From the IMG/VR virus record IMGVR_UViG_3300031885_000006, positions 1 to 64,000 of that record: DNA of 64,000 nt; one strand, written 5' to 3'. The notes below the pieces were generated by a model. The model was not told the origin of the DNA and did not search any database. It worked only from the letters and a program-made list of their open reading frames with translations. Numbering within the stretch: position 1 is the first letter of the stretch; every line of letters begins with the position of its first letter. Shown in pieces: positions 5,521-9,273 of the stretch. The stretch is from a virus. Both the position numbers and the translations under genes were made by a program.

Positions 5521-5612
5521 CTCTCCAGCTTCGATTTGAACGAAGACTAATTGATTCAACTTGTTGGCCGTCTAGCCAAAAGTCAATTGTGCTACCATTA
5601 CACTACCGGAGA
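5521..5612 (-). tRNA. tRNA-Gln(TTG) with 21-nt insertion in the anticodon loop
   Basis: TCTCCGG acceptor; ATTGA/TCAAT stem enclosing 28 nt instead of 7. Confidence 0.8.
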
Positions 5613-5617
5613 ATAAG

Positions 5618-5692
5618 TTCCAGGGGAACGAATTGAACGTTCGCATTTCTGTTTCAAAAACAGATGGGATTACCAACAACCCCAGCCCTGGA
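5618..5692 (-). tRNA. non-canonical tRNA-Gln(TTG) (C8, extended D stem)
   Basis: TCCAGGG/CCCTGGA; TCTGT-TTTTGAA-ACAGA; GAACG-TTCAATT-CGTTC. Confidence 0.7.
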
Positions 5693-5798
5693 ATAAATTC
5701 CAGTTTGACCGACTGGAGAAAAGAATATTCGAGATGCGTCCACCATTTAGGAATAGCTTTTTCCTATGAATATTCACGGTTGGTTGTAAAGAACCAAG

Positions 5799-5888
5799 CT
5801 CCCCAGGGAGGGTACGATCCTCCATACCGTTCTAGACGGGGTACACGATATTAACAGTATCGTCGCTTACCAATTAGCGTACCGGGGA
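5799..5888 (-). tRNA. tRNA-Asn(GTT) with long variable arm
   Basis: CGATA-CTGTTAA-TATCG; 22-nt variable region containing CCGT-CTAGA-ACGG. Confidence 0.8.
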
Positions 5889-5895
5889 ATAAAAA

Positions 5896-6015
5896 AGAGG
5901 AAGATGGGGATCGAACCCATGACCGACAAGTTAATGTAGTCCTAACTACATTCCAATGAAGGACGAGTAACGTCAAGACGTTTGTTTGTTGCTCTACCAA
6001 CTGAGCTACTTCCTC
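5896..6015 (-). ncRNA. tRNA-like RNA whose anticodon loop is replaced by a Y-RNA-like domain
   Basis: 7-bp acceptor plus canonical D and T arms; insert matches the repeats at 14490-14615 in permuted order. Confidence 0.8.
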
Positions 6016-6060
6016 AAATTCGTCCGGTTTTTGAATGGAACCGAAGACACTAAACCATAG

Positions 6061-6131
6061 AGCCACTACTAGGAGTCGAACCCAGACCTTCAAGGTACAA
6101 GCTTGATATACTGCCATTATAAGACAGTGGC
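6061..6131 (-). tRNA. tRNA-Thr(TGT)
   Basis: GCCACTG acceptor; TCAAG-CTTGTAC-CTTGA. Confidence 0.85.
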
Positions 6132-6136
6132 TTAAA

Positions 6137-6418
6137 TTACCAATTCTTCATTACAATCACAACAAAAGTCATCCAAAATAAAATTGAAGTGGAGAACGCA
6201 GTCCAAAGTAAGTATGCTTTCAATGTTGGTCTGTTTTCAAAACATCTAAACGGGACAAACAACATCAGTAAAATTACAAATGGAAAAGCTGCTCCAAATA
6301 AAATGGCAAGAGATCTATCCAACATTTCATAAAAAGTGTAACTTATATGTGGATTGATGTCATCATATTCTTGGGGAGCCCGATATGGATTTTCATTGTC
6401 CATGTTGAATCCTAACAA
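6137..6418 (-). CDS. membrane protein, two TM helices, NPYxxP N-terminal motif
   Basis: hydrophobic segments; start probably 6403. Confidence 0.6.
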   Translation of the reverse strand: MLGFNMDNENPYRAPQEYDDINPHISYTFYEMLDRSLAILFGAAFPFVILLMLFVPFRCFENRPTLKAYLLWTAFSTSILFWMTFVVIVMKNW

Positions 6419-6725
6419 TTTTAAATGGTTTCTTTTCTACAATCAAACCCCAGGGAATCTTAAACCGACCTCTGCTGCCGTTGGGTCCATCTATCTGATA
6501 TAGCATATATCTAACATTCAGCATATATCTAACATTCACCATATCACAAATTATAATTCTTCTTCTATTCGAAAGCAGAAATTCTGATTCCCAATTTACA
6601 TCTGGTGGGTGCCATTGATTGTCAGCAAAAACACTTATAAATCCAAGCAAATGAAACGTAAACATTGGGCTCAGAAGAACACACAATAACGTTGTTGCTA
6701 CAAACCAACTTTTCAAACTTCTCAT
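6393..6725 (-). CDS. hypothetical membrane protein with 18-bp tandem duplication (6502-6538)
   Basis: NVRYML repeated. Confidence 0.55.
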   Translation of the reverse strand: MRSLKSWFVATTLLCVLLSPMFTFHLLGFISVFADNQWHPPDVNWESEFLLSNRRRIIICDMVNVRYMLNVRYMLYQIDGPNGSRGRFKIPWGLIVEKKPFKIVRIQHGQ

Positions 6726-6737
6726 TTATTTCTCCAG

Positions 6738-6809
6738 AGCGATATGTGAGATTTGAACTCAACTCCTCTTGCTCGGCAAGCAAACGTGCGGCCACTACAC
6801 CAATATCGC
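6738..6809 (-). tRNA. tRNA-Gly(GCC)
   Basis: GCGATAT acceptor, U73; TTTGC-TTGCCGA-GCAAG. Confidence 0.85.
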
Positions 6810-6853
6810 ATATAGTTTTTAATTTTCTGAAACGCAGAACTATAACTGCGCAG

Positions 6854-6895
6854 TAGCCACAGTAGGATTCGAACCTACAACCTTCAGTTTCGTAA
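6854..6895 (-). pseudogene. 3' half of tRNA-Arg(ACG); 5' half absent, overlapped by a 49-aa ORF at 6840-6989
   Basis: ACGAA-ACTGA-AGGTT-GTAGGTTCGAATCCTAC-TGTGGCTA with no D arm upstream. Confidence 0.7.
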
Positions 6896-7001
6896 AAGTT
6901 AAAACTTCACTGTCATCTTGCATTTTAATTTCATATTTCTCTATCACTCCTGCTTGTACTAAAGTGTTTAAAATTGGTTCGTCCATCATATTTCTCCTAA
7001 G

Positions 7002-7085: not shown

Positions 7086-7089
7086 TCAG

Positions 7090-7162
7090 TGTCCCCGGTG
7101 GGAGTCGGACCCACAACGTTCGCATTAAAAGTGCGATACTCTGCCAATTGAGTTACGGAGAC
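7090..7162 (-). tRNA. tRNA-Lys(TTT)
   Basis: TCGCA-CTTTTAA-TGCGA, canonical cloverleaf. Confidence 0.85.
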
Positions 7163-7214
7163 ATATATTCATGCTCTCCGTAAAAGGTTACGGAGAGCTA
7201 AATTTTTAGACGTT

Positions 7215-7658
7215 TTAATCGATCACACATAACATTTCCTTTCCAACTACTTTTTTACCAGCATGCAACTTTCTATGACAATTAGCACACAAAACTACAC
7301 ACTTACAAATTTCCTTTTTAATCTTTTCCCATGTGCGACAATATACTCCACTTGCTACAGTGAAGTCTTTATCATCTAAATGGTGAAAATCTAAACACAC
7401 CACATCACTTTCAAAACAAAGTTGGCAACCATATGCGCTCTTTATTTTATTGACCTTTTCTTTATATTCCTTAATTTGATTTTTAGTTCTTATTTTTACA
7501 TTTTTTCGATGTTGCTCATTATTTGTTTTGTAATAGGTTCTTGATCTCACCCGATTACATTCTCTACAAATATTTTGCAAACCATCTTTGGACGTATTCT
7601 TTTTATTATACTCCGTTAATTCTTTTACTTCCTTGCATATAGTGCATGTTTTATTCAT
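7215..7658 (-). CDS. HNH homing endonuclease
   Basis: CxxC, LDFHH, LCANCHRKLH motifs. Confidence 0.8.
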   Translation of the reverse strand: MNKTCTICKEVKELTEYNKKNTSKDGLQNICRECNRVRSRTYYKTNNEQHRKNVKIRTKNQIKEYKEKVNKIKSAYGCQLCFESDVVCLDFHHLDDKDFTVASGVYCRTWEKIKKEICKCVVLCANCHRKLHAGKKVVGKEMLCVID

Positions 7659-7711
7659 ACACTATATAAGTAACTTTTAATTATTTTCAACAATTAAAAG
7701 TTATTTTTCCT

Positions 7712-7978
7712 TTATTCAATTTCATTGGTATCGACGATGTGATACCAATCATAGTCATACTCTGATTCATTAATTTTGTAGCCACGCACGACGGGCTTCA
7801 ATTGTTTTGTATAAGCTTTTTCACCAGCTTTTGTATCTGGGAATTTTTCACGTTCCAAGATTGGATAAAATTTTTCTTCTATTTTCATTTCTTCTTTGGT
7901 GTTGAAGCTTCCTTGAAAGTCATTCCAGCCACCATCTGGGTAATAACTACTACCAGCGAATAATAAAAACCTTTTCAT
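7712..7978 (-). CDS. phage hypothetical protein
   Basis: FLLFAGxxYYPxGGWxDF motif; AAGGA RBS. Confidence 0.65.
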   Translation of the reverse strand: MKRFLLFAGSSYYPDGGWNDFQGSFNTKEEMKIEEKFYPILEREKFPDTKAGEKAYTKQLKPVVRGYKINESEYDYDWYHIVDTNEIE

Positions 7979-7992
7979 TTTTTTTCCTTAAG

Positions 7993-8074
7993 CAGGCTAG
8001 CCAGGATTCGAACCCGGTGGGCTAATTAAAGCCACGGTTTTGGAGACCGTTTCCTCTCCCAGGAGGACTAGCCT
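7993..8074 (-). tRNA. tRNA-Trp(CCA) with long variable arm
   Basis: AGGCTAG acceptor, G73; ACGGT-CTCCAAA-ACCGT; GGCT-TTAATT-AGCC variable arm. Confidence 0.8.
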
Positions 8075-8078
8075 ATGT

Positions 8079-8150
8079 TGCATGAATTTAAGAGAATCGA
8101 ACTCTAAGACGCTGTTTTCAAGCCGTTGTCCCACCAACTGTTTTTCATGC
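8079..8150 (-). pseudogene. degenerate tRNA (Phe GAA-like)
   Basis: GCATGAA/TTCATGC acceptor and AGAG-TTCGATT-CTCT T arm intact; D and anticodon stems poorly paired. Confidence 0.5.
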
Positions 8151-8152
8151 AT

Positions 8153-8807
8153 TTATTCTTTTACTTCTTTTTCTTCGATGGTGATTGTTTCTGATCCATT
8201 TCGCCAAGCTTTAATTATATTTTCCGACATGGCAAATCCATTATGAGTTTTGCCAATTATTTCCCATCTGTTTCCTTTAGTTTTTTCTTTTGCAGCTTTT
8301 TCTGCGGCTTTCAAAGTTTTATAAACATCAGTAGTCATTGGGCCTTCGAAATCCAATCCCCAAATCAGCAAATAGACGTTCATTCTTTATTTCCTGTTAA
8401 TTCGTTAATGACCCAATCTTTCTTTTGGTGTCGAGTTTCGAACCATTTAAGCATGGCTTTCCATCGACTTTCATTTACTTTGAATGGGATTTTGGTTCCG
8501 TTGTTCTGCATGTATTCGAAAAATTCGGCTACATTTAGACTACCTGGGTAATATGTTTTCCAGCCTTTGCCAGTTCCGTACCACATTACTGTCGGTCCTT
8601 CCCATCAAGGTCATCCCATTCAGTGACATTGATGTTGTCGTAATCTTCTTTCTTTAGGGCGTTATTGCAGGCTCTTCGGTTGTCACGAACTTTCTTTTTT
8701 TTGATTGTTCGTCTTTCGTGTCGAGCCCACTGATCCATTTCTTGGTTTTGCCAAGCTTTTTTCCAGCTATTCATGTTAAAAATTCCAATAAAAAAACCCC
8801 TTTTCAA
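8153..8807 (-). CDS. three short hypothetical ORFs (8153-8383, 8380-8586, 8586-8807)
   Basis: ORF track; translational overlaps. Confidence 0.55.
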
Positions 8808-8829
8808 GTTTGCACCTGAAAAGGGGTTT
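8790..8829 (-). terminator. intrinsic terminator
   Basis: AAACCCCTTTTCA..TGAAAAGGGGTTT followed by a T run. Confidence 0.75.
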
Positions 8830-9053
8830 AAGTTTACGCACTTATTCCCGATCCAGGTTTCCCTGAACCGAGATATTCTCTATCGGCTCAGAGTACGATA
8901 TTTTTACGTCCTTGCTTGTTAATCAAGCAAGTACGTGTAGTGGTATGCCAATTTTGTTGGCCTTTCCCACTACCATTCGTTCTCTGAGTCATTGTGAACA
9001 TTTTAATCATCTTTCAAAAAATACGACGGAACAGCCCGTCAAATCACTTCTTT

Positions 9054-9081
9054 AGTATACGCTCTTTTTTGACTTTGTAAA
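9054..9081 (-). promoter_or_regulatory. sigma70-like promoter TTTACA-N16-TATACT
   Basis: recurrent motif with fixed 16-nt spacer. Confidence 0.7.
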
Positions 9082-9177
9082 GCACATCGTCAAAAAAATT
9101 GGTTGGCCCCAAATTTTATATGGGTTTCTAACAATTGTTTGGCTTATCAGACAAAAGTCTGATCGGACCAACCAAGG

Positions 9178-9273
9178 TGGAGGAGGATGGATTTGAACCA
9201 TCGATTTCCAGCTTATTCATGGAGCGGTTTTGCTCATGAGACTGGCGAGATAACCGGGCTTCTCTACTCCTCT
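9178..9273 (-). tRNA. tRNA-Met(CAT), fMet-like 1:72 mismatch, with 21-nt insertion in the anticodon loop
   Basis: CCAGT/GCTGG stem enclosing 28 nt; GATGG-TTCAAAT-CCATC T arm. Confidence 0.8.

Follow-up and report, generated by a model that had tools for sequence, protein, structure and literature searches.

What are the two 21-nucleotide (nt) hairpins that interrupt the anticodon loops of a tRNA-Gln gene and a tRNA-Met gene in a phage genome from sediment, and how would a usable tRNA come out of such genes? The DNA in question is positions 1 to 64,000 of the IMG/VR virus record IMGVR_UViG_3300031885_000006, a 64-kb stretch (from here on, the window) out of a record of 76.9 kb. An initial annotation of the window had reported a 21-nt hairpin insert in each of the two tRNAs, and ARAGORN, the predicted folds and insert-free DNA alleles all confirm it. 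The reading that we favour, and that sequence comparison makes probable, is that the inserts are protein-spliced hairpin mini-introns of one clade of huge phages, sealed by a phage Rnl1 ligase. The hairpins form a family whose existence, register, and presence or absence in related DNA are established by comparison, as is the ligase, and from these we infer a mechanism of splicing.

Both split tRNA bodies retain U8, A14, G18G19, the T-loop and intact stems. The body of the first is of Gln type, with U1-A72, G73 and a D arm resembling those of the adjacent Gln genes, and the second carries an A1xC72 mismatch and A11:U24, which are initiator features. The Rfam tRNA model gives 46.3 bits for the Met gene (9178-9273) with the insert looped out, and it misses the Gln gene at 5520-5612. 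The two 28-nt loop sequences read as they were first quoted, and the folds return the annotated arrangement, in which the 5' portion of the anticodon loop is paired with the hairpin and a single C bulges from the hairpin's 3' strand. The z-scores of the whole-gene folds are -3.2 and -4.2, with none of 200 shuffles as stable. Excising 21 nt from tRNA-Gln at 33/34, 34/35 or 35/36 leaves the loop CTTTGAA, and excising 21 nt from tRNA-Met at 34/35, 35/36 or 36/37 leaves CTCATAA; the frames first proposed (34/35 or 35/36) are correct, but the allowed range is one step wider in each tRNA. A 2-nt repeat makes the Gln frames down to 5558-5578 equivalent, and the Met frames are equivalent down to 9215-9235. 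The 37/38 frame would give the Gln-type body a Lys(TTT) anticodon, the result from which the initial annotation had argued for a non-canonical site. Its view that the inserts are too short for self-splicing and form no bulge-helix-bulge is borne out by their length and folds. Each insert sequence is single-copy in the window, and neither the comparison of the two inserts with each other nor that with adjacent hairpins gives significant similarity. A common origin with the long variable-arm hairpins of neighbouring tRNAs was considered and dropped, the 8-mer and 7-mer matches (p 0.0075-0.0175, uncorrected, in 30 comparisons) not being significant.

Strains differ in whether they carry the Gln insert. 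We compared contigs of four other sediment runs with positions 5400-9400. Contigs X2 and X4, which come from two other studies and are otherwise near-identical to the window, lack exactly 21 nt at 5558-5578; both also have T>G at 5555, corresponding to A38>C of the tRNA, so that their loop is CTTTGAC. Contig X3 retains the insert. A pattern scan of JGI metagenomes added a contig (L117) with about 94% identity over 4910-5621 and an intron-less Gln gene, also with the loop CTTTGAC. Apart from the missing 21 nt, the three insert-free loci are 94-99% identical to the window. These alleles mark the 21 nt as a separate unit, give UUG as the mature anticodon and exclude 37/38 as the site. Since the Gln(UUG) gene of the relative G006, described below, has the loop CTTTGAC as well, C38 may be the older state and the Gln insert a gain rather than ancestral. 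For tRNA-Met, exact-pattern scans of IMG/VR and of JGI metagenomes gave no match with or without the insert, and the matches to its D-arm pattern were unrelated tRNA-Trp genes only.

More distant phages hold hairpins of the same kind. Close relatives of the window are few, and BLAST of the tRNA region against the INPHARED phages returned short tRNA-level matches only. Relatives chosen by DnaE (G001-G005) and one chosen by DUF4139 (L001) have no such 21-22-nt hairpin inserts, and a 'Thr(cgt) i13' call in relatives chosen in these ways is apparently spurious. IMG/VR records with the closest Rnl1-type ligases were scanned for tRNAs, and genes longer than 90 nt were then examined. Three of these records, G006 (259 kb), its near-twin G008, and G011 (436 kb, 85% complete), have 21-22-nt hairpins in anticodon loops, in four distinct tRNA genes. 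The initial annotation had proposed conservation of insert length and structure in relatives as a test of its claim, and both recur in these records, as expected of discrete, conserved units rather than of damage to the genes. The split genes of the relatives are a tRNA-Met, a tRNA-Arg(UCU) in two records and a tRNA-Leu(UAA), and the names that ARAGORN gives are Lys(ctt), Arg(tct), Leu(taa) and Ile(tat).

All six distinct inserts share one plan when aligned on the hairpin (alignment A4). On the 5' side, the boundary lies 6 nt ahead of a hexaloop, and the upper stem has 4-5 bp. The hexaloop follows the pattern N-A-R-W-C-N (TAGACG, AAAACC, CAGACA, AAGTCA, CAGTCA and TTATCA), with an invariant C at its fifth position. 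On the 3' side, the boundary lies 9 nt past the hexaloop in the 21-mers and 10 nt past it in the 22-mers, and the 3' strand has a one-base bulge or a small internal loop (1x2). From one to three further pairs span the 5' boundary, with the terminal one or two bases of the 5' exon paired to the third- and second-last bases of the intron. The spliced loops in this register would be CTTTGAA, CTCATAA, CTCATAA, CTTCTAA, CTTAAAA and CTTCTAA, so that insert removal gives a canonical 7-nt loop with an anticodon matching the tRNA body in all six members. The gene called Lys(ctt) becomes an initiator-like Met, and the gene called Ile(tat) becomes an Arg(UCU). Hairpin mini-introns would therefore cause standard tRNA finders to misname these genes, as seen in the calls of Pro, Lys and Ile for what are actually Gln, Met and Arg. 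The two inserts of the window belong to the family by the position of the insert, by a hexaloop with the invariant C, and by allowed frames that include the register of the rule; the covariance model made from A4 (R1) scores them at 29.6 and 34.9 bits. We excluded a 22-nt insert in the tRNA-Val(TAC) of G006 (L211 15599-15694), which forms a different, longer hairpin without such a loop.

Intron-less orthologues, sought after the family rule had been stated, fix the boundaries. Aligned with the Arg(UCU) gene of G010, to which it is 83% identical, the Arg gene of G011 shows a gap of exactly 21 nt, CTT/CTAA, placed unambiguously at 34/35 (A8). The Met gene of G006, aligned with an intron-less initiator-like Met of G011, has its gap between CTC and ATAA, also at 34/35 (A6), and the Leu gene of G006, aligned with the Leu(UAA) of G010, has it between C32 and U33, at 32/33 (A9). 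The 5' boundary lies 6 nt ahead of the loop in each of these uniquely bounded cases (3/3). The Arg gene of G002 is consistent with the 22-mer of G006 (A7). The identity of the G011 'Ile(tat)' gene as an Arg(UCU) had been predicted from the rule before the orthologue was seen. The site on the tRNA varies (32/33, 33/34 and 34/35) while the register on the hairpin is constant, which argues that the cut is placed by the hairpin, not by the tRNA body. In the window, the family rule sets the cuts listed in Table 1, one for each of the two tRNAs.

In A4, 95.2% of the pair cells are standard, and all seven pairs are changed on both sides. None of 500 shuffles reaches the observed level of covariation, and slid partners pair at 26-42%, this second control being the weaker of the two because the structure was derived from the same sequences and the alignment is anchored on chosen frames. 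R1 is specific: in 1.04 Mb of related DNA it finds the seven known copies only, and across 100 IMG/VR records (about 9 Mb) its matches are confined to G006, G008 and G011. The cloverleaf landmarks are all present in the exons of the split tRNAs. Where intron-bearing and intron-less exons can be compared (A8, A9), the stem changes are compensatory or wobble-compatible, and none is pair-breaking. An initiator-like Met is interrupted at 34/35 in the window and likewise in G006, the insert sequences being unrelated and the exons about 70% identical (A6). The compensation in the exon stems and this shared Met site with unrelated inserts argue against dead genes. Genes with and without the insert are seen both between strains and between the more distant phages.

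If the split tRNAs are cut and rejoined, the product of the open reading frame (ORF) 33620-35002 is, by its sequence, a candidate for the sealing enzyme. The initial annotation had named an Rnl1 ligase in the window, and profile, motifs and fold agree with it. The protein scores 42.9 bits against Pfam PF09511 RNA_lig_T4_1 (cut-off 28.3) and has the motifs KMDG (motif I, KxDG), EGFVF and KVKDPKY; residues K122, D124, G125, E290, G291, K304 and K306 are invariant across 40 homologues. Its AlphaFold model (pLDDT 86.5) has the Rnl1 fold including the C-terminal helical domain, and the best PDB matches of the model in Foldseek are T4 Rnl1 entries (5tt6, 2c5u and 9do4; E 4e-13 to 9e-12), with 406-418 aligned columns of 367-375 residues. 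Homologues of the ligase number more than 120, many of them from contigs 200-580 kb long, and its closest relatives in IMG/VR mark the records that contain the hairpin family. The gene order around the ligase is PhoH, o162, ligase, o256, o157, and ORF 32208-32696 is kept beside the ligase in all relatives. This ORF and ORF 32711-33583 were considered as RNA enzymes and rejected, both being HExxH metallopeptidase-like instead.

Other enzymes for cutting or healing are less clear. A T4-type Pnkp, with the domains AAA_33 and PNK3P, is encoded in G011. In the window, the metallophosphoesterase of the initial annotation does have a Pfam Metallophos match (22.8 against 21.5 bits), but a marginal one and without an NCBIfam match. 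The ORF at 14628-15080 had been called HEPN-like, and it does contain an R-x4-H motif (RCNLVH), but it has no HEPN match in Pfam or NCBIfam. ESM Atlas leads to the Rv1289 domain (PF27329), a family membership that leaves the HEPN assignment unproven, and the fold model (pLDDT 34) is uninformative.

Table 1. Features of the window that bear on the interrupted tRNA genes, with positions in the 64,000-nt stretch.
Feature	Position	Strand	Evidence or remark
tRNA-Gln(UUG), split by 21-nt hairpin	5521..5612	minus	ARAGORN, paralogue alignment, intron-less alleles
Gln mini-intron (putative), 21 nt	5560..5580	minus	cut 33/34 by family rule
Gln intron hexaloop TAGACG	5569..5574	minus	motif N-A-R-W-C-N
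Initiator-like tRNA-Met(CAU), split by 21-nt hairpin	9178..9273	minus	Rfam, ARAGORN, alignment with G006 and G011 Met
Met mini-intron (putative), 21 nt	9217..9237	minus	cut 34/35 by family rule
Met intron hexaloop AAAACC	9226..9231	minus	
T4 Rnl1-type ATP-dependent RNA ligase, 460 aa	33620..35002	plus	candidate sealing enzyme
HExxH metallopeptidase-like ORF	32208-32696	plus	upstream of ligase
HExxH metallopeptidase-like ORF	32711-33583	plus	upstream of ligase; window only
Metallophosphoesterase, calcineurin-like	21132..21779	minus	weak candidate end-healing enzyme
Rv1289-domain ORF, 150 aa, in Ro60 operon	14628..15080	minus	speculative nuclease candidate
Ro60/TROVE protein	15986..17563	minus	Pfam TROVE and vWA_Ro60
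tRNA cluster	1456-9273	minus	
ARAGORN split gene	5520-5612	minus	21-nt intron
ARAGORN split gene, Met(cat)	9176-9273	minus	21-nt intron
ARAGORN split gene	5896-6015	minus	47-nt insert

The window also encodes a Ro60/TROVE protein. TROVE is present in the window, G006, G008 and G011 and not in G010 or G002, which is the same split as that of the hairpins; with about three lineages against two, we take this co-occurrence only as a lead. ARAGORN, with introns allowed, reports three split tRNA genes in the window, and the third of them (5896-6015) is of another kind. This tRNA-shaped gene has a 47-nt insert in its anticodon loop, with a Y-RNA-like ACTCGTC...GAATG and a GTAGTT-loop-ACTAC hairpin. 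Excision of the 47 nt leaves no U33, and the GTAGTT-loop-ACTAC hairpin is common to genes in G008 and G006 (L222 8255-8384; L209 7089-7216), so that the gene looks like a conserved chimera of tRNA and Y RNA rather than one with an intron. Three mini Y-RNA-like hairpins sharing GAATG...ACTCGTC lie at 1712-1790 and 14452-14628 of the window (minus strand); for the hairpin at 1712-1790, Rfam gives a sub-threshold match to YrlB (E 0.0015), and L117 has a counterpart (5096-5172) with 88% conservation. A further hairpin at 9125-9175 (minus), directly 3' of tRNA-Met, includes UGGUCCGAU, which we take to be the Ro60-binding stem sequence of vertebrate Y RNAs; the window has 4 copies of this octamer where 0.8 would be expected.

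The mechanism that we propose would run as follows. In the precursor tRNA, the anticodon would be masked inside the hairpin. A protein endonuclease would read the hairpin, through its loop motif and the ruler, rather than the tRNA body, and would cut at both feet of the stem. The nick so left in the anticodon loop would be sealed by the T4 Rnl1-type ligase of the phage, directly if the ends are 3'-OH and 5'-phosphate, and otherwise after end-healing by a T4-type Pnkp like that of the 85%-complete G011. A masked anticodon may, we suppose, let the tRNA evade host anticodon nucleases. We also entertain, as a tentative possibility, a more specific version, in which a dedicated and perhaps phage-encoded endonuclease, maybe together with the Ro60 system, reads the N-A-R-W-C-N loop and cuts each strand at a set distance; the repair enzymes Pnkp and Rnl1, of T4 type, would be co-opted for rejoining the exons, and the anticodon would stay hidden from host anticodon nucleases until the tRNA is matured by the phage.

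Several points count against protein splicing. The family is small, with six distinct inserts from four records and about three lineages, and two of its loops, AAAACC and TTATCA, are exceptions to the loop motif. RNase III, RtcB and tRNA_int_endo domains were not found in the window's record or in five relatives (search set G000, G006, the 85%-complete G011, G008, G010 and G002). In the window itself, the frame of either intron can be shifted by 2 nt, the one adopted being that of the family rule, and A4, with its chosen frames, takes its structure from the sequences on which it is judged. The split Gln gene is redundant, with a second Gln(UUG) gene just 5 nt upstream of it and intron-less alleles in circulation. 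None of the public runs listed for the window is of RNA. The boundaries are staggered by 2 nt in the 21-mers and by 3 nt (or 1) in the 22-mers, so that simple cleavage by RNase III would not account for the whole family.

Part of this evidence would suit hairpins that are never removed. The masked-anticodon, tRNA-shaped RNAs would then act as decoys for anticodon nucleases, or as ligands or substrates of Ro60, and intron-less paralogues or host tRNAs would do the decoding. The redundant Gln(UUG), Arg(UCU) and Met genes agree with such a role, as do the presence of Ro60/TROVE in exactly the records that hold hairpins and the gene at 5896-6015, where the same phage puts a 47-nt Y-like module that is not an intron into an anticodon loop. 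Yet a decoy does not need to give a perfect 7-nt loop with a fitting anticodon when its hairpin is taken out, and 6/6 members give one; the hairpins lack the Y-like motif, and the only tRNA-Leu gene found in G006 is the split one. We regard permanent retention as unlikely. We find it harder still to believe in selfish or accidental DNA insertions, such as a tiny mobile palindrome or a templated insertion, that inactivate dispensable tRNA genes. Insertions of this sort would explain why presence and absence differ between near-identical strains and why odd or decayed tRNA pieces lie in the cluster (5420-5517 and near 6843-6900), and the insert may be a recent gain, given that the insert-free allele has C38 as in the Gln gene of G006. 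They would not be expected to conserve a structure with full covariation while the sequence is free, to keep a loop-relative register that is fixed in the three uniquely bounded cases, or to have no copies outside tRNA anticodon loops in about 9 Mb; the exon stems, moreover, are kept by compensatory changes (A8, A9), and no significant similarity links the inserts with each other or with adjacent hairpins.

The hairpins could also leave by a route that is already known, and to this we give the least credence of all. Such a route might be an undetected bulge-helix-bulge endonuclease with RtcB, a small ribozyme, or host RNase III followed by Rnl1. Bulge-helix-bulge introns of archaea also occur at non-canonical sites, as the inserts do here, but no bulge-helix-bulge can be drawn for the inserts, whose only bulge is on the strand that carries the 3' cut, and tRNA_int_endo and RtcB were not found in the 85%-complete G011. 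A length of 21 nt is far below that of the known self-cleaving motifs. For RNase III, 4/6 members (the 21-mers) can be drawn with the 2-nt 3' overhang that the enzyme leaves, and Rnl1 would then need no healing of the ends; the 22-mers, though, have a 1- or 3-nt stagger, and the stem above the cut is just 6 bp. To our knowledge, the substrates of bacterial RNase III are not marked by a conserved loop motif such as the one seen here. We rate plain host RNase III low because of the 22-mer stagger, the 6-bp stem and the loop motif, which suggests a dedicated reader. Protein splicing by such a reader, with sealing by Rnl1, thus remains the account that we prefer.

How does this compare with known systems? 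On the accepted view, tRNA introns of bacteria and their viruses are removed solely as self-splicing group I ribozymes, and protein-based tRNA splicing is regarded as an archaeal and eukaryotic trait. Group I introns, as in tRNA-Leu(UAA), likewise interrupt the anticodon loop in some relatives and are missing from others, but they are self-splicing ribozymes whose P3-P9 core needs roughly at least 200 nt, which is impossible for a 21-nt hairpin, and the inserts of the window have no Rfam intron match. Archaeal and eukaryal introns are closer in several respects: they are short, lie at or near the anticodon loop, are removed by proteins, and are gained and lost, and local intron-exon structure determines the site in archaea. 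Their enzymes are the EndA/Sen endonuclease and the RtcB or Trl1 ligase. The bulge-helix-bulge that they require has two 3-nt bulges on opposite strands around a 4-bp helix, each with a splice site, whereas in the folds of the window the 3' strand has just one bulge, of 1 nt, and a 1x4 or 0x5 loop adjoins the anticodon stem. The window further differs in having a bacterial host, no EndA or RtcB homologue found, a conserved loop motif, and an ATP-dependent Rnl1 as the likely ligase.

The repair system of phage T4, in which PrrC cuts the tRNA at 33/34, Pnkp heals the ends and Rnl1 seals them, uses the same kit, with Rnl1 in the window and Pnkp in G011, and also acts on a nick in the anticodon loop; the 5' boundary that the rule sets for the Gln intron, 33/34, is the position of the PrrC cut. 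T4, however, repairs damage inflicted by the host, whereas here two programmed cuts would drop 21-22 nt from transcripts of the phage itself. By analogy, the hairpins may also be likened to the intervening sequences of bacterial 23S rRNA, where RNase III makes a cut with a short stagger at the base of a hairpin stem within a stable RNA, the pieces not being rejoined, and to the substrates of yeast Rnt1p, which reads a loop (an AGNN tetraloop) and measures the cut from it, much as 4/6 of the loops here have an AG(A/U)C core; the Rnt1p ruler, of 14-16 bp, would differ from the 6 nt found here. Both of these resemblances draw on established knowledge.

The nearest precedent is in phages. Lak megaphages have 'enigmatic' tRNA introns that are not of group I, with alleles that carry them and alleles that do not, and with a splicing mechanism described as unknown (Devoto et al. 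2019, PMC6784885). Like the inserts of the window, those lie in tRNA genes of huge phages and are absent from some alleles. The Lak tRNA-Tyr insert (Table S6) has 93 nt and the tRNA-Thr insert is predicted to be tRNA-like (PMC6784885); no common structure or register is described for Lak, whereas the inserts here have 21-22 nt, a loop motif and boundaries from 32/33 to 34/35. In the literature we found no description of such introns beyond this one (PMC6784885), and no mechanism. New here are the 21-22-nt class, its loop motif, a register measured from the loop and fixed by orthologues, and presence and absence at the level of strains. Taken as sequence evidence, these features point to a cut-and-rejoin form of tRNA splicing not yet shown for bacteria or their viruses. 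A family with hairpin-measured boundaries offers a concrete, testable substrate for protein-based tRNA splicing in bacterial viruses, and its loop motif and 6-nt ruler are direct handles for enzyme discovery. If the reading is true, a 'repair' ligase of T4 type gains a programmed role, and phages could hide their tRNAs from anticodon nucleases.

The window has a G+C content of 38%, and the public runs containing it are sediment metagenomes. CheckV puts the completeness of its record at 15%, which makes the record part of a phage genome of roughly 0.5 Mb, of which a contig of 104 kb is also available. A bacterial host is indicated by sigma-70 and NAD-ligase genes in the window and by tmRNA genes in related records. 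Within the tRNA cluster, the small ORFs have no family match, and relaxed ARAGORN calls at 6853-6969 and 6820-6907 were dropped for their poor folds. A 420-nt structured region beside the ligase operon matches no Rfam family and gave terminator-like noise only. In contigs of three other samples, 6396 is joined directly to 6725, with 8 letters in place of 328 nt, and the 110-aa ORF 6393-6725 is therefore absent from those strains.

The cluster and its relatives hold further unusual tRNA sequences. Directly after the split Gln gene, 5420-5517 (minus) is the 5' half of a Gln-type tRNA, and 6843-6900 (minus), inside a small ORF, is a perfect T-arm and acceptor 3' half; these pieces could be remnants or attachment-site-like. 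We rejected the idea that 5420-5517 is an old copy of the intron-bearing Gln gene, their alignment being confined to the 5' half. The tRNA-Asn, -Lys and -Trp of the window (5798-5888, 7001-7085 and 7992-8074, minus) have hairpin variable arms, unusual for their types, and so does a tRNA-Cys of the related contig L117 (785-869), a type in which such an arm is normally absent. In G002, a tRNA-Leu(TAA) (L094 18966-19237) is interrupted at the anticodon by a group-I-sized insert of 197 nt, and in G011 a 116-nt Gln/His-like tRNA (L217 11306-11421) has an insert of about 44 nt in its D-loop. Suppressor-type tRNAs occur in G006 and G011 (L207-L221), with the anticodon CTA in both and TCA in G011, which hints at stop-codon recoding.

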